Origin: an uncultured Gammaproteobacteria bacterium | GTDB lineage: Bacteria > Patescibacteriota > Patescibacteriia > Patescibacteriales > UBA12465 | Reading direction: 5' to 3' | DNA: 33,654 bases | Assembly (NCBI GenBank): GCA_964536885.1 | Contig: CAZHYP010000002.1 | Coordinates: forward strand, 1 to 33,654 | Part shown: positions 13,034 through 29,722 of the stretch, in pieces | Numbering within the stretch: position 1 is the first letter of the stretch | Layout of the letters: every line of letters starts with the position of its first letter | Notes under the pieces: generated by a model | Told to the model about the DNA's origin: nothing | Database searches by the model: none | The model's input: only the letters and a program-made list of their open reading frames with translations | Position numbers and translations under genes: made by a program

Positions 13034-13600
13034 TTATTCTAAAACTTGAATTTTGGCTGTTTTAACGCCAAATTTAATAGCACTAGAACGGTCCTTCATC
13101 CAAATATCTACTCTGTTGGGGTGTTTTTTGTTCATACGATCACGAACCACAAAAACACGGTCACCGTATAGTTCAGGAATTTTTACCTTTGTTCCCATTT
13201 TTAAGAAGTTAGCAGCAATAGTATCTTCAACTCCGTGTTTACAAACATTGAAACCGTTTGCAGTGATACATGGGGAATCATCGGTTTGTCCTACTTCAGA
13301 GTTGTAGGCGGTAATAACGTGAACACTAGTACTCTTTACTTTGTATTCAGGGGTGGTAGAAGCGACAGCAGTGGCAGTATCAGCCACTTTCTTAGCCTCA
13401 ATATCCATTTCAGCGCTTTTGTTGACTTCCCCAAGACTAATCTCTTCTTGTTCCTGGGCGGCCACAGTTTCGGCGGCTAAAACAGGGGTAAAGAATAAAA
13501 CAAACTGAAAGATACAAGCAATAAGCAAGAATAATAAAATACTCTGCTTGCTACTGAGAGGCACAATATCCTCTCCAAATTTTTGAAGACGTTTTTTCAT
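13034..13600 (-). CDS. 3D-domain cell-wall-associated protein (MltA/RlpA-like double-psi barrel)
   Basis: 188 aa with an N-terminal TM/signal anchor. C-terminal VITAYNSEVGQTDDSPCITANG...GTKVKIPELYGDRVFVVRDRMN...VDIWM matches the 3D-domain pattern (the three conserved Asp). Confidence 0.8.
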   Translation of the reverse strand: MKKRLQKFGEDIVPLSSKQSILLFLLIACIFQFVLFFTPVLAAETVAAQEQEEISLGEVNKSAEMDIEAKKVADTATAVASTTPEYKVKSTSVHVITAYNSEVGQTDDSPCITANGFNVCKHGVEDTIAANFLKMGTKVKIPELYGDRVFVVRDRMNKKHPNRVDIWMKDRSSAIKFGVKTAKIQVLE

Positions 13601-13806: not shown

Positions 13807-14325
13807 ATGAAGAAAATGTTATTATTTTTACTCGGCACACTGTTGCTGGGTGCTGCTATGACCAGCTGTGTTTCTACAAATGGTCTCACTCGATACGAAT
13901 ACGTACGTACTGTTCGTTCGCAAATTTTTCAGGCGAACGGAAACGACAGCGTTCCTGATCAAATGGGGCGACTGAGGTACAATCAGGGCACCAGAGAGCA
14001 AATCGTTAAACTGTCTGTGGCAGCTGACACGGTGAAGTTTTTCCCTTGCTTGCTGATAAACAGTAAGATTGGCCGCAATGAGATGGCCACATTTTACTTT
14101 AGCAGCCGCTATGTAAAAGACGTTGCCAAATCTTTTGCCCTCAGACCTGAAAGTGAAATGATTGTGTCGTTGCCAGCCGGAGAATACTTTGTCAGAATTG
14201 TTTCTAGCAACTTTGATGAGACGTTCATTTCGCATGTTGACCCCAGAGTGACTCATACCACTAATAATAATGGTAAAGACCGCACATTCTATCTAATTGC
14301 TGAAAAGCGGTTGAATGATCACTAA
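13807..14325 (+). CDS. hypothetical lipoprotein, compositionally atypical
   Basis: 172 aa. Signal peptide MKKMLLFLLGTLLLGAAMTSC ends in a lipobox-like Cys. Visibly more G+C-rich than its neighbours. Has its own promoter and terminator. Confidence 0.55.
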   Translation: MKKMLLFLLGTLLLGAAMTSCVSTNGLTRYEYVRTVRSQIFQANGNDSVPDQMGRLRYNQGTREQIVKLSVAADTVKFFPCLLINSKIGRNEMATFYFSSRYVKDVAKSFALRPESEMIVSLPAGEYFVRIVSSNFDETFISHVDPRVTHTTNNNGKDRTFYLIAEKRLNDH

Positions 14326-14330
14326 CCAAT

Positions 14331-14373
14331 AAAAAAAGGACCCAATCCAATAAGGAAAGGGTCCTGTTTTTTT
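14331..14373. terminator. bidirectional intrinsic terminator (lipoprotein gene / end of pilin-like array)
   Basis: A7-GGACCC-N15-GGGTCC-TGTTTTTTT. Confidence 0.7.
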
Positions 14374-14384
14374 AAAAAAACTGA

Positions 14385-14804
14385 TTAAGGAGTGACCGAG
14401 GCGCCACCAGTTCCGTTGCTAGCAAATGGTAAATATTTAAAGACAGAGTAAGTTATAGCGTAAGCAGCTAAGACAATGATAATACCGATCACGGAGTTTT
14501 TAATAGAACCTTTAGCGGCGTCAATTTCTTTTTCATTCCCTTGAGACATCATCCATTTAAAGCCTGCTAAAATTGTTAAAACCAAAAAGACAACACCTAA
14601 GAAACCAAGAACCACCTGAATAATAACTGATATTATAGTGGCTAAATTTGAACTACCCGCCAACCCAGCGGCGCCCGCTAGAGCTTCGTCTTGGGCATCT
14701 AGGCTGTCGGTTTTTAGGCTCGCCGCTTTAATAAATGAAGCTAAACTGAATTGAGTAATAAATAAAAAAATGAAAGCCTTTATTTTGTTAAATTTATTTA
14801 TCAT
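14385..14804 (-). CDS. VirB2/TrbC-like two-helix pilin paralogue P6
   Basis: 139 aa. Signal peptide ending IKA/AS, variable segment, TM1, loop GFKWMMSQGNEKEIDAAK, TM2. Overlaps P5 by 4 nt. Confidence 0.6.
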   Translation of the reverse strand: MINKFNKIKAFIFLFITQFSLASFIKAASLKTDSLDAQDEALAGAAGLAGSSNLATIISVIIQVVLGFLGVVFLVLTILAGFKWMMSQGNEKEIDAAKGSIKNSVIGIIIVLAAYAITYSVFKYLPFASNGTGGASVTP

Positions 14805-15211
14805 ATTTTTGAAATAAAGTAAGTCTTAATAAAGAACCAAACAGCATAAGAAGCGATAACAACAACCAAACCAATAACGGCTCTAGTTACCGAATCTTTG
14901 GCTTTCTCTACTTGTGATTCATTGCCCTGAGCAGTCATCCACTGATATCCAGACATGATTGTAATCGCCAAGAAAATAATACCTAAAATACTTAAGGCGA
15001 CACTAATAACAAGTCCTAAAGTGGAGGCCAAAGTGGTTTCAGTCGCGGTTTGTGAATATGGGCCATAACCAGTAGCAGCGTTGTTAAGACGATCGATTGG
15101 TGAAGCCTTACTCTTTAAAAGTGTTGCATCAGCTGAAAATACTAATCCCGGAACAATTAGAATTACTGTTAAAAAGAAAACGTTTAGCCAAGATTTAAAT
15201 TTTTTAACCAT
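14801..15211 (-). CDS. VirB2/TrbC-like two-helix pilin paralogue P5
   Basis: 136 aa. Signal peptide, variable segment, TM1, loop GYQWMTAQGNESQVEKAK, TM2. Confidence 0.6.
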   Translation of the reverse strand: MVKKFKSWLNVFFLTVILIVPGLVFSADATLLKSKASPIDRLNNAATGYGPYSQTATETTLASTLGLVISVALSILGIIFLAITIMSGYQWMTAQGNESQVEKAKDSVTRAVIGLVVVIASYAVWFFIKTYFISKI

Positions 15212-15215
15212 ATTA

Positions 15216-15605
15216 TTAATTAAAGATTCTTAACAAAAAGATTGTTAAAGCGTATCCACCTATTATAAAAATTAGACCAATAATAACTGTAAATAAATTA
15301 TCTTTAGCTTTGGTTACTTGAGCTTCGTTACCACGAGCGGTCATCCAAGTAAAACCACTATAAATTATAAGAGCAATTGCAATAATTCCTAAAAGTGAAA
15401 AGAAGGCAGTTAAGATTATTCCAACATAACCTTCGACGGCGATTGGATCTTTTTCATAGCCAGATTGTTGTGCCAACGTGGATAAAGAACCTTCTTTATT
15501 AAAGCTATCTTTAAAACTAAAAGCCAACGCTGGCGTGTTAATTAAAAAACTGGCAGTAATTATGATGGCTAATAAATATTTAGTTATTTTTTTTGGGTTT
15601 AACAT
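15216..15605 (-). CDS. VirB2/TrbC-like two-helix pilin paralogue P4
   Basis: 129 aa. Signal peptide ending ALA/FS, TM1, loop GFTWMTARGNEAQVTKAK, TM2. Confidence 0.6.
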   Translation of the reverse strand: MLNPKKITKYLLAIIITASFLINTPALAFSFKDSFNKEGSLSTLAQQSGYEKDPIAVEGYVGIILTAFFSLLGIIAIALIIYSGFTWMTARGNEAQVTKAKDNLFTVIIGLIFIIGGYALTIFLLRIFN

Positions 15606-15606
15606 T

Positions 15607-16011
15607 TTAGTTGGAAGTATTTTCTACTTGTCGTGCTGTATTTTGAAAGGCATTCATTACAAAATATGTTATGCCATAAGCGGAAAGACAAATTATTAAA
15701 CCAACAATTGCTTTTACTATGGTGTTTTTAGCCTTATCAATTTGACTAGTGTTTCCTTGAGCGGTCATCCAATTAACCCCGGCATAAATAGTTAGAATTA
15801 AAAAAATTAAACCCATGAAAGAAAAAATAACGCTAAGAACTAAACCAATATAATATTCTGGAGTCATTTCTGAATTAGCATCGTATCCCATTGTTGGAGC
15901 AACCTCCTTAATTCCGCTATTCTGTTTAAAATCATAAGCCGCACTCGCTGGTGATACGGAGATGGATAAGATGGTAAAATTTAATAATATTAAGGCTAAT
16001 ATTTTTTTCAT
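15607..16011 (-). CDS. VirB2/TrbC-like two-helix pilin paralogue P3
   Basis: 134 aa. Signal peptide ending ASA/AY, TM1, loop GVNWMTAQGNTSQIDKAK, TM2. Confidence 0.6.
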   Translation of the reverse strand: MKKILALILLNFTILSISVSPASAAYDFKQNSGIKEVAPTMGYDANSEMTPEYYIGLVLSVIFSFMGLIFLILTIYAGVNWMTAQGNTSQIDKAKNTIVKAIVGLIICLSAYGITYFVMNAFQNTARQVENTSN

Positions 16012-16019
16012 AGCTTAAA

Positions 16020-16421
16020 CTATTTAGCAAGATTTTGACCAACAAAGGTGGTGATTGAATAAGCAGCCGTAATTATTACCAAACCAATAACAGCATTTAT
16101 TAATAAATCCTTAGCTTTTTCTACTTGAGCAGAATTTCCTTGAGCGGTCATCCACATTATGCCAGCATAAATAGTTAAAATTAAGAAAATAACGCCCACA
16201 AAAGATAAAATTAAACCAACAATACCACCGACTCTGTTAAGTAGCATTGTTCTAATAGATGCCTTTTCCTGCTGATATTGGGAATTATAAAGAGAAACGC
16301 CACTAACTGTTTTAGTAAGGCCCTCAATAGTTGGGTCGGTGGTGGTAGCTAAAGCAGGGCTTATGGAAAATAATGATACCCATAAGATTGCTACCGCTAA
16401 TAAATATTTGGTTAATTTCAT
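16020..16421 (-). CDS. VirB2/TrbC-like two-helix pilin paralogue P2
   Basis: 133 aa. Signal peptide ending ALA/TT, TM1, loop GIMWMTAQGNSAQVEKAK, TM2. Confidence 0.6.
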   Translation of the reverse strand: MKLTKYLLAVAILWVSLFSISPALATTTDPTIEGLTKTVSGVSLYNSQYQQEKASIRTMLLNRVGGIVGLILSFVGVIFLILTIYAGIMWMTAQGNSAQVEKAKDLLINAVIGLVIITAAYSITTFVGQNLAK

Positions 16422-16521
16422 ATGGTTTTTTTACGGCTCTAAATCTAAAGAATTTAGGTTTAAGGCGGCAACCCCCATAAAAATATGAGGGGACCGTTTT
16501 TCTGAAATCGATTTCGGAAAA

Positions 16522-16926
16522 CTAGTTAGCAGAACCTGTTCCAGTTGTAGTAACAGTAACAGCCTGAGTAAGAACCCACTTAGCAATACCCCAAGCAGAT
16601 AAAATGATGACGATACCAACGATACCGGCGCTCATTAATTTCTTAGCTTCAGTGATTTTGTCATCACTTCCACCAGCGGTCATCCATTTGAAACCTCCCA
16701 TTAAGATAATAACTACAGCAACTAAGCCTAAGAAAAGCATAGCGGTGTTAATTAAGTTAGTAGCAAGAGCAACTGGAGATTTTTCACCTAATTTTAAATT
16801 GGTAGATACAACGTTTCCGCCTAAGTCAGTGTTAACGTCTAAAGTACCAGCAGCTAAAACAGCTGGAGCTACTACGAAAGACATAACGATGGCCAAGGAT
16901 AATAAGTGTTTTGCAAATTTTTTCAT
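16522..16926 (-). CDS. VirB2/TrbC-like two-helix pilin paralogue P1 (candidate major subunit)
   Basis: 134 aa. Signal peptide ending VLA/AG, TM1, loop GFKWMTAGGSDDKITEAK, TM2, Thr/Gly-rich tail. Strong SD AAAGGTGGTG and its own promoter. Confidence 0.65.
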   Translation of the reverse strand: MKKFAKHLLSLAIVMSFVVAPAVLAAGTLDVNTDLGGNVVSTNLKLGEKSPVALATNLINTAMLFLGLVAVVIILMGGFKWMTAGGSDDKITEAKKLMSAGIVGIVIILSAWGIAKWVLTQAVTVTTTGTGSAN

Positions 16927-16973
16927 AATTCACCACCTTTCTAGTTTTTAATATTTTTTTATTTTATGTAATT

Positions 16974-17002
16974 ATTTTAGCATAACCATAGTAACAAGAC
17001 AA
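16974..17002 (-). promoter_or_regulatory. sigma70-like promoter of the pilin-like array
   Basis: Minus strand: TTGTCT, 17-nt spacer ending TGC, TAAAAT. About 45 nt upstream of the P1 ATG. Confidence 0.55.
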
Positions 17003-19445: not shown

Positions 19446-20813
19446 TTAGTTGATTGTTTGTTGAACTTTAGAGGCGCCATCATTTAAAACGTCAAAAATT
19501 CTATCACCGGCGTTGGCGGCGGCATCAATCATTTCCGAGATTGCTCCTTCAGCATCAATAATACTTCGTCCACGATACCAACTTTTAGCGCTTAAAATTT
19601 GTTCTGCAAAAACACCTAAATCTTCACTGTCTTTTTGAGAATTAATTAAAGATTTAAGGGCGGTTGGTTTCTTGGTTTTTTCTAAATATATTTTAGCATT
19701 CTCTTCCTTAGTTAAGAATTGAATAAAGTCCCAAGCTTCGTTAGGGTGTTTACTTTTTTTAGAAACAGCATCAACCCAGTAATTAGCAAAATTTATTTGT
19801 AGTGAATTACCTTCTATTTGTGGTAGTTTAGCGATGCCAAAATTTAATTTCGGAGCCTGAGCACGAATTTGTTCGACATTAAATGAATAGCCAAAGAACA
19901 TAGCTAGGTTACCGCTGGTAAAAGCTTCTAAAGCATTTGGCATTTCATTGTTCCAGGAGTAAACCTCTTTATTTGGGTTAGCAAAATCAGTATAAAAACG
20001 TAGAGCCTCAAGTCCTGGGTTATAGTTATTCGACATGGTTTCTGGAATTGCGTGGAAAGTGACCTGATTACCGCTGGTCATCACAGCTCCATTTTGCATC
20101 ATTAAAACGGAGAGAATATCACTAAAGCGATTGATGTTTTTTGAGGTGCCAAGAGCCACGCCAGACTGAACTATGCCCGCTTTTGGATCTTGTTTAGTTA
20201 ACTTCTTCACATCTTGTTGAAATTCTTTATTCCAATAAGCTGGAGCGGCAGTGATGCCAGCATTGTTTAGTAAGTCTCGATTATAATATAGAGCTAAAGT
20301 ATCAACTGATAGTGGCAAGCCGTAGATTTTACCATCTTCTAGAACAACGTCAGAATAAACAACATCCGCAAAGGTGTTTCTTAAATCACGAATTGTCAGA
20401 CTTTTAGTAGTTTTAAGCTGAGGTACTACCTCTTTTTGGATGGTTCCGGTTTCAACCATATAAGCCATGGTAATTTCTGCCGGCATCGGAGTTAATTTTG
20501 TTTGATACTTTTTTATCCAAGTGTTTTGAATGGCAAAAATATCTGGACCGCGATCCTCGGCCCAAGCGTTAAGTAACTCGTTCTCATATTCTTCATAACG
20601 GAACTTTTTGTATTCAATATTAATGTTGGGGTGTAGTACTTTGTATTTAGCAATAATGTCGTCAAAAGCGTCGCTATCATCAAAAGCCTGCCAGAATACT
20701 AAGGTAATTGGCTTGCTGGCTTCTTGAGTTGCTTGGCTAGATGTTTTGCAACCAAAGCCAGCTGTTAAGACAAAAACTAGCAATAACGAAAAAGCAATTA
20801 TTTTTTTAGACAT
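19446..20813 (-). CDS. extracellular solute-binding lipoprotein (ABC family 1, sugar-type)
   Basis: 455 aa. Lipobox LTAGFGC, then ITLVFWQAFDD...YKKFRYEEYENELLNAWAEDRGPDIF, typical of SBP_bac_1. No permease or ATPase partner in the window. Confidence 0.75.
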   Translation of the reverse strand: MSKKIIAFSLLLVFVLTAGFGCKTSSQATQEASKPITLVFWQAFDDSDAFDDIIAKYKVLHPNINIEYKKFRYEEYENELLNAWAEDRGPDIFAIQNTWIKKYQTKLTPMPAEITMAYMVETGTIQKEVVPQLKTTKSLTIRDLRNTFADVVYSDVVLEDGKIYGLPLSVDTLALYYNRDLLNNAGITAAPAYWNKEFQQDVKKLTKQDPKAGIVQSGVALGTSKNINRFSDILSVLMMQNGAVMTSGNQVTFHAIPETMSNNYNPGLEALRFYTDFANPNKEVYSWNNEMPNALEAFTSGNLAMFFGYSFNVEQIRAQAPKLNFGIAKLPQIEGNSLQINFANYWVDAVSKKSKHPNEAWDFIQFLTKEENAKIYLEKTKKPTALKSLINSQKDSEDLGVFAEQILSAKSWYRGRSIIDAEGAISEMIDAAANAGDRIFDVLNDGASKVQQTIN

Positions 20814-25604: not shown

Positions 25605-27767
25605 CTAGAGACTCTTTATATCTGTATATAAGTTTTTTAGATGTTCATCTGACATGTCTAATAGAGGCTCATACATAAAAGAATTTAAGTGAATGTTTTC
25701 TGGTGTCATTAAATTAACCTGATCAAGTATTTTTATTTTTTCTTCTTCTGTGGTTCCATATTCCTGTTTAAATCTGTCAAATAACACGCGGGTCTGATAT
25801 TTAGCGATTGGTGTTTTATCTGATATTCTACTTAATATATATTTTTCAGCCTGCAATCTTATTGCCATTGATAATATTATTTTATTTTCTAGGTTTATTC
25901 CATTTGTTGCCGTCAAACAATCATCAGCTAATTCAAAAATTAGCTCTATTACTTTTTTTGTTTTATTTGTAAAATTTATCGTTAAATTTGGAAAATTTTG
26001 TTTATATATATCTTCTAAATCACCTTTTGTTATATCTTCCGACGTATCTTTTATGTGTAATACAGAAGTGAGTGTTAAAAAAGATGTGTCCGCTGCTCCT
26101 TTTGTATATTCTATAATATTTCTAACAAATGCTAATGAAGCTATAAACTTTTTGTCTTGGTCAAGATGCCCCATGAAATCCTCAAAAGGTTTAAAATGTT
26201 CAGCTCTTACAAGTTTTGTTTCATCCTTTGTTTTTTCAACCATTAAACAATGTCCATCTCTGGATATATTTAATCTCTCTTTTGCTGTTCTAAAAAAATC
26301 AAAATTATGTGTTAAAATTATGTGAAAAAAATGATCACTTTCTGTCATCTCTTTTAGGTATGCTATGATTGCATATTTATTTTGATAATCAAATGAATCG
26401 GCAATATCATCAATTATAAATAAGGTTTTTTGGTTATCCTTCATTCTGGCTTGTACTTCAAATATTATATTCAACAAGTATAAGGCTCTTTTTTCTCCGC
26501 CACTTAATATTTTTATTAATTCTTTTTGTTCAACTGGAGCTTCGTCTCCTCCATCATTTTCTTTAAATACAAAAGAAATAGTTGGCGTATCCGTCCCAAG
26601 TATGGCATCTTCTTGATTTTGTATCATTAATCTAAATGGAACAAAAAATCTTTTATTATATGTATCTATAACTCTTGCCCAATCAGTAGCCTCTAACTTC
26701 GCTTGTTTTATGATTTCATCAATATCCTTTTTACTTTCAGTGTATTTATTTAATAAATTTGTGTATAGTTCGGTGTTGCTTTTTAAATATGATATCCAAA
26801 GTTTTTGTCTAAAGCCGGCAATATTTTCTAATTCAGTAATAATTTTTTCATTTTCGATTAAGTATGTTCTAAAATTTCTTAACTCAGCATTTTTTATTAA
26901 AGCTTTTTCTATATCATTAAATGCTTTAACGAGTGCCGGGTTATTTAAAATTGATGTTTTTTCTTCTTCAATAACTTTTTCTAATTCTTCTTCTGATCCG
27001 ATTTGTTTGTCATCAGCATCTTTGCCATGTAAAAAAACTGAGTGTTCTGCAGCAAAAAAACCATTTTCTACAAGATTCTTTGCTATTGTGGACGCATTAT
27101 TATGATTAAAAACACCTTTTTTAAAGTATTGAGATGCTTCCACTAGCTCATTATATTTATTAATATAGTCTAAGAGCTTAGTTTTAAAATCTTTTGTTTC
27201 TAAAAAAGACAGAACTTTTTCATTAAAAATTTCTTTATATACTATATCTGAAAACAAAGGCACTGTTTTGTCGGTAACTCTTGGTTGAGTACTTTCAAGC
27301 GCCACTAAAAAAGATTCGGTGTTATGAATAAATGCATCAGATATTTCATTCTCTATTCCGCTCTTAAGTCCACTCAATTGTTTTAATTCTGTTATTAACT
27401 TATCTTTTTCTTTGTTTATTTCTTCGTGTATTAAATCGTACTTATCTTTAAGGGTTTTATTTACTAATAGTGTAGATAGCTTTTCTGATTTAAAGAATTC
27501 GTTGTATGAGTCTATTACAAAGACTTCACCTGGCAATAGGTTTTGTCCGTTTTCTTTTTTAATATCTCTTTTTGGTATTCTCGAGGGAAATATTCTGTCT
27601 TTAGAAAGAGCATTGTTCTCTAAATCAGAAAAAGTATTTGCGAATGATGTTTTCATTGCTCCATTTGGGGCATAAATTATAAAAGAATGTCCATCTGAAA
27701 AATCAAATGATGTTTCTAATTTTTTTATTCCGTAGCAATTTTCTAGTAATAAGTTTAATTTTTCCAT
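25605..27767 (-). CDS. PrrC/RloC-like (AAA_13-type) ABC ATPase with degenerate Walker A and an uncharacterised C-terminal domain
   Basis: 720 aa. Walker A-like YAPNGAMKTS (aa 32-41), about 380 aa of helical insertion, ABC signature LSGGEKRALYLL (421-432), Walker B/D-loop LFIIDDIADSFD (449-460), H-loop ILTHNFDFF (484-492), then about 220 aa of C-terminal domain. Confidence 0.6.
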   Translation of the reverse strand: MEKLNLLLENCYGIKKLETSFDFSDGHSFIIYAPNGAMKTSFANTFSDLENNALSKDRIFPSRIPKRDIKKENGQNLLPGEVFVIDSYNEFFKSEKLSTLLVNKTLKDKYDLIHEEINKEKDKLITELKQLSGLKSGIENEISDAFIHNTESFLVALESTQPRVTDKTVPLFSDIVYKEIFNEKVLSFLETKDFKTKLLDYINKYNELVEASQYFKKGVFNHNNASTIAKNLVENGFFAAEHSVFLHGKDADDKQIGSEEELEKVIEEEKTSILNNPALVKAFNDIEKALIKNAELRNFRTYLIENEKIITELENIAGFRQKLWISYLKSNTELYTNLLNKYTESKKDIDEIIKQAKLEATDWARVIDTYNKRFFVPFRLMIQNQEDAILGTDTPTISFVFKENDGGDEAPVEQKELIKILSGGEKRALYLLNIIFEVQARMKDNQKTLFIIDDIADSFDYQNKYAIIAYLKEMTESDHFFHIILTHNFDFFRTAKERLNISRDGHCLMVEKTKDETKLVRAEHFKPFEDFMGHLDQDKKFIASLAFVRNIIEYTKGAADTSFLTLTSVLHIKDTSEDITKGDLEDIYKQNFPNLTINFTNKTKKVIELIFELADDCLTATNGINLENKIILSMAIRLQAEKYILSRISDKTPIAKYQTRVLFDRFKQEYGTTEEEKIKILDQVNLMTPENIHLNSFMYEPLLDMSDEHLKNLYTDIKSL

Positions 27768-27768
27768 A

Positions 27769-28845
27769 TTATCTTATAAATCTTATCTGTAGATTTAATT
27801 TTATATATAATTCACCATTTTCTTGATAAATTTTACCAAAGCCATGTTTATGAGTGCCCCCTGTTTCGAATTTTGTATTTTTAAATAAATAATCTTGAAA
27901 AGAGTCCATATTATAGAGATGATAACAGACCACATCCCCATCTTCTTTTACTATTAAATACCCACCATGAGCTGTATTAAGCCCATCCCATTCTTTGCTG
28001 GGCATCATACCAAGAGCAACTGCACGCAAAAAAGTTTTTATTTTATATTCAAAATCACTTGCTGTTAAATCGTATTTATCTTTTAAATATTGGTTACTTG
28101 CAAGGAGTTCGCAAATTGTTTGTAAATTTGAACTCTCTCCTCTATAAAAACAATTTAAAGCTGTAGCAATTATTTCTGGAAATACTATATCTATTTTTCT
28201 TAGATTATTCTTGAATTTAGAATTTGCCATTGAGTAAAATGATAAGATTCCTCCAGATGCTTCAATTGCTTTAATTTTATCTACAACCTTTGACCCTCCG
28301 TCAATTTGGTTTATTTCAGTATAGTTACCAATAAAATTATTTATTTTATAAATGAAATTTGTGGCCCCAGAAGCATTTAAAAGTGTAGCTGGCGCCCCGA
28401 GCATAGATTTTATACTAAATCCCAGATCTACAATCATAGGAGAGCCACACTCTCTTACTTTTGCTGTTAAGTCTGCTTTATGGCTATTTCCAGCTTTTAT
28501 TTGTGAGCACCCTAATTCTGTCATTAATTCTTCTGCCAACGGAACAGAAAATGCGCCAGTAGATTCTTTTATTGTTTCAAATATTCTACTTATGCAAGAC
28601 TTAATTTTTGTTTGGTTTACAGCACCAATAATTGTTTTATCTAATTTTGTTATTTCAATATTTTCACCATTGAACTTATATAATTTTCCAGTCTGGCCAG
28701 GCTCTTCTCTTAGAACCCCGATAACAGGGTAATGTTTGTCATTTATTCTATTTAATTCTGAGTCAGCAAAAAAAAGCTTTCTTTCATCAAGAACTTTTAG
28801 AAAAGTATAAATCTCGCTCCATTCACCCTTATTACCCTTTATCAT
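27769..28845 (-). CDS. type II restriction endonuclease, probably HpaII family
   Basis: 358 aa. The N-terminus MIKGNKGEWSEIYTFLKVLDERKLFFAD resembles, from memory, the N-terminus of HpaII-family enzymes. Overlaps the upstream C5-MTase gene by 14 nt. Family call unverified. Confidence 0.5.
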   Translation of the reverse strand: MIKGNKGEWSEIYTFLKVLDERKLFFADSELNRINDKHYPVIGVLREEPGQTGKLYKFNGENIEITKLDKTIIGAVNQTKIKSCISRIFETIKESTGAFSVPLAEELMTELGCSQIKAGNSHKADLTAKVRECGSPMIVDLGFSIKSMLGAPATLLNASGATNFIYKINNFIGNYTEINQIDGGSKVVDKIKAIEASGGILSFYSMANSKFKNNLRKIDIVFPEIIATALNCFYRGESSNLQTICELLASNQYLKDKYDLTASDFEYKIKTFLRAVALGMMPSKEWDGLNTAHGGYLIVKEDGDVVCYHLYNMDSFQDYLFKNTKFETGGTHKHGFGKIYQENGELYIKLNLQIRFIR

Positions 28846-29722
28846 ATTTCTTTAAGGTGTTGATGATTTGTTTAGCGTAGGCTGTTATAGCCGGAACAGC
28901 AACGGCATTGCCTAGCTGTTTCATGGCTTGGGAGTTGGTAACAGGAAAAATATAGTCTTCTGGAAAGCCCATCATTCTTTTTCCCTCTGTTGGCATTAGT
29001 CTTTTTACTTCGCCATCCACTATGTATGAATCCCAATTATGTCTATCTCCTATTTTAGATCCTCGCCCACCAACTCTTAATGTATATCCTATCTTCTTTT
29101 CGCATTTCCCTTTGAAAATATCGTCCATAGTCTTTTTTAATTCTGTTGGTTCTGGAAATTCGAATTTAATATCTTTATCTTTGAAACCAACCATAAACAA
29201 ACGTGGTCTATGTTGTGGCACACCGAAATCTGAAGCTTTAACTATTTTGTAATAAAAAGAATAGCCAAGGTCTTTTTCTATAGTTTTTTTGATAGTGGCA
29301 AAAGTTTTCCCGTCATCATGGTTTAGTAAATGTCTGACATTTTCAAGAAAAAATGCTTTTGGTTTTTTTTCTTTTATAATGTCAGCTATGTGAAAAAACA
29401 AGTTTCCACGGTCATCTTTAAAGCCCTTTTTAAAGCCAGATTGACTAAATGGCTGACAAGGAAAGCCTCCGCAAATAACATCAAAATCAGGTATATCTTT
29501 AGGAATTACCTTAGTTATATCTCCAACAAATTTATCTTCTTTAAATATTTTTGGTGATTTTTTTTCGAAGTTAGCTTTATAGGTTTTTCTGGCTGATTCG
29601 TCCCATTCGGACACAAAAACACATTCAGCCCCAGCATCATCAAAGGCTAAATGAAAACCACCTATACCAGCAAATAAATCAATAAATTTATAGCTTTTCT
29701 TATTTTTTATGGTCTTTTTCAT
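28832..29722 (-). CDS. DNA (cytosine-5)-methyltransferase
   Basis: 296 aa with C5-MTase motifs in canonical order: I FIDLFAGIGGF, IV GGFPCQPFS, VI FLENV, VIII QHRPRLFMVGF, IX/X MGFPEDY...QLGNAVAVP. Compact target-recognition region. Confidence 0.9.
   Translation of the reverse strand: MKKTIKNKKSYKFIDLFAGIGGFHLAFDDAGAECVFVSEWDESARKTYKANFEKKSPKIFKEDKFVGDITKVIPKDIPDFDVICGGFPCQPFSQSGFKKGFKDDRGNLFFHIADIIKEKKPKAFFLENVRHLLNHDDGKTFATIKKTIEKDLGYSFYYKIVKASDFGVPQHRPRLFMVGFKDKDIKFEFPEPTELKKTMDDIFKGKCEKKIGYTLRVGGRGSKIGDRHNWDSYIVDGEVKRLMPTEGKRMMGFPEDYIFPVTNSQAMKQLGNAVAVPAITAYAKQIINTLKKYDKG

Follow-up and report, generated by a model that had tools for sequence, protein, structure and literature searches.

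The locus considered here raises the question of why a bacterium should keep six small pilin-like genes in tandem (P1 to P6) where no secretion apparatus is encoded in their surroundings. The genes lie on the minus strand of contig CAZHYP010000002.1, of which positions 1 to 33,654 were analysed as a whole (the window), and a sequence-only reading had described them as VirB2/TrbC-like two-helix pilins that would form either a heteropolymeric filament or a repertoire of alternative tips. We propose, with a probability of a little over one half (about 0.55), that these proteins and a seventh paralog, all from the pilin family PF18895, build one heteromeric surface structure that is assembled by a distally encoded type IV secretion system (T4SS) and has its role in host-cell contact or exchange. 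Arrays of T4SS-type pilins are a hallmark of the Patescibacteria and are essential in the one tractable species. The stability of the positional orthologs and the natural occurrence of several units in one fused chain both argue for paralogs that are different components of a single assembly and not variants of one part.

The six open reading frames of 129-139 amino acids follow one another between positions 14385 and 16926, exactly as the sequence-only reading had placed them: P1, the lead gene (16522-16926, 134 aa), P2 (16020-16421, 133 aa), P3 (15607-16011, 134 aa), P4 (15216-15605, 129 aa), P5 (14801-15211, 136 aa) and P6 (14385-14804, 139 aa). The count of six stood for the tandem genes, but a seventh paralog had been overlooked. 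This gene, P0 (19039-19440, 133 aa), stands alone on the same strand, at a distance of 2.1 kb upstream of P1, and four genes for a RodZ-like protein, a methyltransferase, a small membrane protein and a UPF0102 protein lie in between. All seven proteins score above the gathering score of PF18895, the Pfam T4SS_pilin model (26.6 bits), with 42.3 bits for P1, 32.3 for P2, 31.6 for P3, 28.1 for P4, 33.1 for P5, 38.1 for P6 and 32.7 for P0. Going by these profile scores, membership of all seven in PF18895 is established. Direct membership in the classical TrbC/VirB2 family PF04956 is not established, as the matches stay below its gathering score of 27.9 bits (P2 22.8 bits, E = 1.1e-4; P4 20.8 bits; P1 13 bits), and the proteins appear to be related to that family without qualifying as members. 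P6 matches the NCBIfam VirB2 model PRK13857 with E = 0.005, and the best NCBIfam match of all seven is NF045849 (22-39.4 bits, E down to 3.6e-10), under the cut-off of 40 bits. An hhalign comparison of the paralog profile with VirB2 of Agrobacterium tumefaciens, whose sequence was verified against PDB 8cue, gave a weak match (probability 27%, P = 6.6e-4) that is in register at the W-M turn. The proposed VirB2/TrbC-type identity was therefore borne out by PF18895 for all proteins, and by weak matches to the TrbC/VirB2 models. P1 has 434 homologs, part of which are named "pilin" by NCBI in Falkowbacteria, Parcubacteria or Patescibacteria, and a profile search for the whole family collected 75,341 representatives at 50% identity (E <= 1e-3).

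Hydropathy shows three hydrophobic segments in every paralog. As judged by eye, the hydrophobic N-terminus ends in a small-x-small site in each of the six array proteins (VLA|A, ALA|T, ASA|A, ALA|F, VFS|A and IKA|A for P1 to P6), so that the AxA-type signal peptide end that had been described holds in this wider sense, but strictly in only three of the six putative cleavage sites. A variable segment of about 31-42 aa follows, and then the two hydrophobic helices. Whole-length pairwise identity among the six is 25-41% (mean ~32%), and it is distributed unevenly, with 29% in the signal peptide, 18.7% in the variable segment, 41.2% in the core and 9% in the tail; the segment is indeed barely alignable between copies. 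The loop motif G-x-x-W-M-(T/M)-(A/S)-x-G-N...K-A-K was recovered in the paralog alignment, except for P1, where G-S stands instead of G-N. For P1, an AlphaFold2 model based on 64 orthologs predicts a signal helix (residues 3-28), a disordered stretch (29-50) and a hairpin of two helices (51-83 and 88-129) with a 4-residue turn and a pLDDT of 77-90 over the hairpin. Hydropathy and model agree with the two-helix topology that had been claimed. A Foldseek search of this model against the PDB returned no hit at E <= 1e-3, and its 50 best matches include no T4SS pilin. Because a bare helical hairpin is not discriminating, this result speaks neither for nor against the pilin assignment. Profiles of the P1 orthologs and of the seven paralogs gave chance matches only against PDB sequences (K2P channels and designed "Pizza" proteins).

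Arrays of this kind are not new, contrary to what the sequence-only reading had implied, since the phenomenon was described in papers of 2020, 2023 and 2025. When PF18895 and PF04956 were used to search 3,035 Patescibacteria genomes, 1,948 assemblies with VirB4 were seen to encode VirB2-like pilins too, but only 1,135 of these have a pilin close to virB4; the survey also counted 441 arrays of 2-11 pilin genes with a mean identity of ~25% and a maximum of 54% (Quinonero-Coronel et al. 2025, PMC12102498). In Southlakia epibionticum a pilin series in the T4SS cluster is essential; according to the tables of that study the six tandem PF18895 genes SEML1_0014-0019 are essential, and the solo gene SEML1_0024, a few genes away, is non-essential (Wang et al. 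2023). In TM7x and other genomes of the Candidate Phyla Radiation 4-6 small proteins that carry signal peptides were seen to form an array next to VirB4/VirB6 (McLean et al. 2020). For the TM7x array an analogy to Ptx/Ptl of Bordetella pertussis was drawn in that work, according to which such proteins would be Sec-exported, toxin- or effector-like cargo released by the T4SS. We regard this explanation as highly improbable for our locus: the mature proteins consist mostly of two long hydrophobic helices and are thus not soluble subunits, all of them match the pilin family PF18895, and the TM7x array has since been reinterpreted as VirB2-like pilins (Quinonero-Coronel et al. 2025, PMC12102498; also a 2025 review). 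The window array by itself is one more example in a catalogue of hundreds and leaves that picture unchanged. What it adds are the ancient positional orthologs, an RNA element behind the lead pilin gene, the coupling to a solute-binding lipoprotein and the multi-unit fusions.

The absence of secretion machinery was confirmed. Pfam scans of all substantial open reading frames in the window found no VirB4, VirB6, VirD4, relaxase or prepilin peptidase, and the other window genes are housekeeping genes by Pfam and NCBIfam (among them YidC, bactofilin, Lgt, LspA, a PEP-utilising enzyme, SMC, Cmk, L19, TsaE and an HpaII-type restriction-modification pair). A genome scan with the lead gene yielded 66 related loci, numbered here with the prefix L, in which pilins were counted with an HMM built from the seven window pilins. 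One of them, L070, the sole locus from Paceibacteria, carries VirB4 1.9 kb from its pilin and served as query source and positive control; phmmer and tblastn searches with this Patescibacteria VirB4 gave no match in the window or among the remaining related loci, and no VirB4 lies within 10 kb on either side of any array examined in class ABY1. A Walker-A regular expression screen for VirB4 was dropped in favour of these searches because it missed the true VirB4 of L070. The missing machinery is nevertheless not the oddity that the sequence-only reading had taken it to be. In the Falkowbacteria genome GW2011_GWF2_38_1205 the VirB2 genes (#589-591 and #595) are listed with "VirB4 proximity: No", and VirB4/TrsD are genes #789-790, some 200 genes away (PMC12102498, Table S3). 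Four genomes that carry related arrays are VirB4-positive and placed in class ABY1, namely ADurb.Bin115, Greene0416_36, GW2011_GWA2_38_13 and Komeilibacteria RIFOXYD1_FULL_37_29 (PMC12102498, Table S1). They are the carriers of loci L018, L035, L058 and L060, and the array of ADurb.Bin115 has the same layout of six genes plus one as the window. Separation of array and motor is the norm in class ABY1. An origin from an integrative and conjugative element (ICE) or another mobile element was rejected, as no integrase, relaxase or coupling protein is found nearby and the GC content of 0.33-0.38 is like that of the rest of the window. Because the flanking housekeeping synteny is kept across many genomes, we consider the locus part of the core chromosome.

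Related loci that bear Patescibacteria names belong to Falkowbacteria or to other ABY1 lineages (Komeili-, Uhr-, Magasanik- and Kerfeldbacteria), the closest relative being Falkowbacteria ELA424 with 73% identity to P1, and we take the host to be a Falkowbacteria-type bacterium of class ABY1. An identical array is present in the sequencing runs SRR8925824, SRR27197509, SRR27197524 and SRR27197544. Many records of metagenome-assembled genomes with this Patescibacteria locus are titled "uncultured Gammaproteobacteria bacterium" (L006, L007, L008, L011, L013, L015 and others), which looks like a systematic mislabelling of those third party annotation assemblies. The layout of six genes plus one is found in 18 related loci besides the window, i.e. 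in 19 genomes in all. In Falkowbacteria the flanking order is SMC/ComM, a solute-binding protein (SBP), P0, RodZ, the methyltransferase, the small membrane protein, UPF0102, P1 to P6, a 188-aa protein, PPDK, Lgt and MFS. Among the 19 genomes, cross-genome best hits fall on the same array position in 78% of cases, compared to 14% expected by chance, and the fractions for P0 and then positions 1-6 are 0.91, 0.89, 0.89, 0.81, 0.39, 0.70 and 0.89, with P4 the least conserved position (39%). Compared with its two closest relatives, the window shows 35-69% identity in the "variable" segment and 62-89% in the core. The pooled ratio of nonsynonymous to synonymous substitution (dN/dS) is 0.12-0.27 in the variable segment and 0.06-0.09 in the core, values that are rough because synonymous divergence is saturated (dS > 1.4). 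Invariant residues occur in the N-terminal segment of P1 across 64 orthologs. At the sequence level, P1 to P6 and P0 thus behave as positional orthologs under purifying selection.

These findings bear on the possibility that the paralogs are interchangeable major pilins or tips that broaden the host range or evade host defences. The literature suggests this reading for Patescibacteria arrays (Quinonero-Coronel et al. 2025, PMC12102498), a similar role having been proposed for VirB2 paralogs in Bartonella and Anaplasma, and it accounts for exposed N- and C-terminal segments that cannot be aligned between paralogs (18.7% and 9% identity) around a conserved core. It would also account for array sizes of 2 to 15 pilin genes between lineages, and for the duplication of the P1-type gene in four loci. 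The exposed segment, however, is conserved between orthologs and its dN/dS is low, so it is paralog-specific and, in the evolutionary sense, not hypervariable, and the hypervariable exposed N-terminus of the sequence-only reading is not supported. Such conservation argues for distinct, non-redundant subunits over a fast-evolving repertoire. The positions are orthologous across genomes with saturated synonymous sites, purifying selection acts on the exposed segments, which contain invariant residues, the packing of P2 to P6 implies co-expression, and all six genes are individually essential in S. epibionticum. For these reasons we consider alternative tips unlikely. Of the heteropolymeric filament with an invariant core and a hypervariable end, the heteromeric assembly fits operon, orthology and fusions, while the hypervariable end is not supported.

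The largest array in our set, L035:8933-16464 from a Parcubacteria-group genome of class ABY1, has 15 pilin genes in one run, compared to the maximum of 11 in the 2025 survey, a number that L042 reaches. The four loci with P1-type duplication (L007, L009, L010 and L014, all Falkowbacteria) have arrays of 7-8 genes in which the P1-type gene is present two- or threefold and positions 2-6 are single; among their array genes only this putative major subunit is amplified.

How the six genes are expressed can be read from their spacing. P1 and P2 are separated by 100 nt, and the following junctions are +8 (P2-P3), +1 (P3-P4), +4 (P4-P5) and -4 nt (P5-P6), the start of P6 overlapping the stop of P5 in ATGA. 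These are the values that had been given before, in reverse order. No internal promoters or terminators were found within P2-P6, and together with the packing at -4 to +8 nt this argues for co-expression rather than for a choice among the genes. Upstream of P1 a promoter-like site, TTGTCT-17-TAAAAT with a TG (16974-17002, minus strand), is weakly indicated, a sigma-70 promoter scan of the region being at chance level (26 sites against 25.8 expected). P1 is the sole array gene with a clear Shine-Dalgarno sequence (AAAGGTGGTG, at ~16931-16940). An intrinsic terminator, as read from the sequence, closes the operon on the minus strand at 14331-14364 (GGACCC...GGGTCC followed by T7), and is common to this operon and the convergent gene at 13807-14325 on the plus strand. 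Promoter-like site, Shine-Dalgarno sequence, structured spacer, tight P2-P6 junctions and terminator give the six genes the anatomy of one transcription unit. The claim that distinct subunits are co-expressed behind a lead gene fits this anatomy as well as the positional orthology and the natural multi-unit fusions.

The spacer between P1 and P2 (16422-16521, minus strand) holds a conserved structured RNA with a minimum free energy of -25.1 kcal/mol (z = -2.1). On the minus strand it comprises hairpin 0 with the palindrome GAAATCGATTTC (~16498-16521), hairpin A with the core YTCTCAT...ATGGGAR (~16472-16495) and hairpin B (~16433-16469), which is weaker in this genome. Hairpin B has a stem of 17-20 bp that is closed by CACTG...CAGTG, and its interior is highly variable yet compensating. 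The element of two hairpins follows the P1-type gene in 27 related loci (among L005-L036 and L039), and the extra 5' hairpin with the palindrome is shared by the window and six relatives (L005, L006, L011, L012, L017 and L018). In a MAFFT alignment of 25 sequences compensatory changes occur in 23 of 25 pairs. Paired cells amount to 93%, compared to 78% in shuffles (0 of 500 reach 93%) and 35-47% with the partner slid, where the choice of the cores as best-folding windows biases the percentage paired, not the covariation. Because G.U pairs are conserved, the structure can be assigned to the mRNA strand. The junction motif occurs once per locus directly 3' of the P1-type gene, with two stray matches elsewhere (L025 and L041), and in L010 it is present three times, once after each of three tandem P1 copies. 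Rfam gave no match for the two-hairpin element, and we did not find a 3' RNA structure of the lead gene described in the literature on Patescibacteria pilin arrays. No U-tract is present directly 3' of hairpin B, and therefore it is probably not a simple terminator. We infer that the element may act as a 3' stabiliser, processing site or attenuator that raises P1 relative to P2-P6. With P1 as candidate major subunit, it offers a testable handle on subunit stoichiometry.

Fusions bear on how the subunits are assembled. Of the 150 family representatives with the best scores, 103 comprise 2-17 pilin units, and natural single polypeptides occur in which 2-17 hairpin units follow one signal peptide. 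Six units are present in representatives P0241, P0242 and P0249, five in P0251, four in P0245, eight in P0243 and 17 in P0244, the latter with Cys-rich linkers. In P0241 a single signal peptide precedes six hairpin units that are joined by short linkers; the best matches of its units to P1-P6 are ambiguous (32-49 bits). By Rosetta-stone logic, the fusions imply that the units stand side by side in one assembly. Further fusions are located at L047:8319-9839, L040:7564-9186, L044:3053-4480 and L052:8303-9817.

The strongest conserved neighbour of the pilins is not a T4SS gene. A gene for a family-1 sugar-binding lipoprotein of the ABC substrate-binding type, the SBP mentioned above (19446-20813, minus strand, 455 aa; SBP_bac_1, E = 1e-30), lies 5 nt upstream of P0. 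Its lipobox GFGC|K is conserved, and the proteins related to it in the PDB are sugar-binding SBPs. The gene occurs in 53 related loci, 46 of which have a same-strand pilin gene next to it, with a median gap of 5 nt, despite rearranged surroundings. No ABC permease or ATPase for it was found within the window. The top 120 homologs are at least 64% identical, and the SBP is thus more conserved than the pilins in a search that sampled close orthologs only. Quinonero-Coronel et al. 2025 (PMC12102498) make no mention of solute-binding proteins, and we found no SBP-pilin link in the T4SS literature. The coupling across the whole class ABY1 is a concrete lead on the function of the apparatus. An extension of the link to Saccharibacteria was rejected, as SEML1_0023 beside the solo pilin of S. 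epibionticum is a GT-C glycosyltransferase (STT3/PglB-like) and no SBP is present.

Envelope-glycan genes also recur beside the arrays, among them a Wzx-type flippase, Wzy_C (the O-antigen ligase or O-oligosaccharyltransferase family), DUF6498, a sugar nucleotidyltransferase, GT2 and DUF2079, as do unannotated proteins of ~530 aa without a Pfam match. The glycan genes are found upstream of the SBP gene in L038, L041, L046, L050, L053, L060, L061 and L064, and between UPF0102 and P1 in L012, L023 and L028. This neighbourhood suggests, without showing, that the exposed Ser/Thr-rich ends of the pilins are glycosylated.

The neighbours call for another explanation to be weighed, in which the seven proteins form a T4SS-independent hetero-oligomer in the membrane, with their hairpins arranged as a ring or bundle. 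Together with the SBP lipoprotein and the envelope-glycan machinery it could be an unconventional uptake channel or scaffold for host-derived sugars, and no filament would be made. The SBP gene as the most conserved neighbour, followed by a same-strand pilin in 46 of 53 loci and better conserved than the pilins, fits this explanation, as do the missing ABC permease in the window, the recurrence of Wzx, Wzy_C, sugar nucleotidyltransferase, GT2 and DUF2079, and the lack of VirB4 near any ABY1 array. Fusions of 4-17 hairpins behind a single signal peptide would be polytopic proteins with 8-34 transmembrane segments, and c-ring subunits matched as well as anything in the fold search. On the other hand, PF18895 proteins are encoded inside T4SS clusters of other classes (1,135 assemblies, S. 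epibionticum and L070), ABY1 genomes have retained VirB4/TrsD, S. epibionticum lacks the SBP link, and the adjacency may partly be inherited synteny, all loci having been sampled through P1 orthology. On balance we judge a T4SS-independent complex to be rather unlikely.

We therefore return to a heteromeric structure built by a distal T4SS. According to this proposal Sec and YidC would insert the pilins and signal peptidase I would cleave them, after which the mature proteins would reside in the cytoplasmic membrane as hairpins whose two termini face outward and whose basic loop faces inward. A T4SS of the VirB4/TrsD/PrgI type (MPF-FATA-like), presumably located far away on the same chromosome as in the relatives, would recruit them into one heteromeric surface structure in which P1 is abundant and P2-P6 are specialised subunits of lower abundance. 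The excess of P1 may be set by the conserved RNA hairpins downstream of its gene. By analogy with S. epibionticum, the structure could serve contact or exchange with the host cell.

Several points weigh against this proposal. For this organism, of which a contig of ~35.7 kb is on record, VirB4 is inferred from its relatives only, and the dN/dS values that indicate purifying selection are rough. What is conserved next to the ABY1 arrays is a sugar-binding lipoprotein gene together with envelope-glycan genes, and in no case a T4SS gene. Searches of solved structures by Foldseek and by sequence do not single out T4SS pilins (all E > 1), and ATP-synthase c subunits and toxin hairpins score equally in the structure searches. 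Chains of 6-17 hairpins are awkward for the extraction of subunits one by one into a pilus, the essentiality of single pilins in the transposon sequencing of S. epibionticum could partly reflect polar effects, and a 2025 review reports that no filament of a PF18895 protein has been seen in any Patescibacterium.

Elements of both views meet in a bolder idea, that in ABY1 seven ancient and specialised subunits form an obligate heteromer with an RNA-set stoichiometry, and that this heteromer is coupled to the orphan SBP as a host-directed conduit for nutrient capture and not as a conventional pilus. If it were true, a tube or ring of pilins would deliver or expose host glycans or oligosaccharides to the lipoprotein, which would give a molecular form to the T4SS pilus of Patescibacteria as an uptake device. 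At present we think that this idea is unlikely to hold.

Two further features of the window should be mentioned. The 188-aa protein at 13034-13600 (minus strand) has an N-terminal hydrophobic anchor or signal and in 26 loci it is kept downstream of the array. Searches of Pfam and of PDB sequences gave no match, and its C-terminal part weakly matches the C-terminus of the cell-wall-binding protein EntA of Bacillus (NCBIfam, E = 1.9e-7). Its assignment as a cell-wall enzyme with a 3D domain was rejected because neither Pfam nor PDB sequences support it, but the protein, which is encoded in a separate transcription unit, could be a wall-remodelling enzyme in a VirB1-like role. Further away, the minus strand encodes an HpaII-type restriction endonuclease (27769-28845), a C-5 cytosine methyltransferase (28832-29722) and, following these two, a 720-aa SMC/RecF-like ATPase (25605-27767). 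The region 25605-29722 probably represents a small defence island that has nothing to do with the pilins.

Compared to known systems, the window pilins share with VirB2, TrbC and TraA of diderm T4SS (PF04956; T-pilus structures PDB 8cue and 8exh) the long cleavable leader, two hydrophobic helices, a short basic loop between them and the predicted position of both termini outside, and their G-x-x-W-M turn aligns with the G-I-S-W-M turn of VirB2. Diderm systems, in contrast, normally have one pilin gene that lies within the T4SS operon, whereas the window host is a monoderm with seven paralogs. The Mbov_0395 family (NF045849) from ICEs of Mycoplasma is also a two-helix family and belongs to an MPF-FATA-type conjugation system of wall-less or monoderm hosts, but it is encoded in single copy on an ICE, while the window locus belongs to the chromosomal core and has seven copies. 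Several divergent virB2 paralogs in tandem, together with T4SS genes scattered over the chromosome, are known from Rickettsiales (rvh) and Bartonella, which are diderm intracellular Proteobacteria and whose VirB2 paralogs are thought to vary antigenically. In comparison with these, the window orthologs are stable and under purifying selection.

Closest are the arrays of other Patescibacteria, for which an array is defined as at least two pilin genes of low identity in tandem or one non-pilin gene apart; in the window six are contiguous. Both have PF18895 proteins encoded by tandem genes of ~105-185 aa with signal peptides, an identity of ~25-32% and no relaxase, and S. epibionticum and the window have in common six tandem pilin genes and a solo seventh a few kb away. 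It is a difference that the array of the window and of class ABY1 lies neither in nor beside a VirB4 cluster. Behind the lead gene there is also a conserved 3' RNA structure, for which we found no published description, and the solo pilin gene is coupled to that of a sugar-binding lipoprotein, a link that S. epibionticum does not share.

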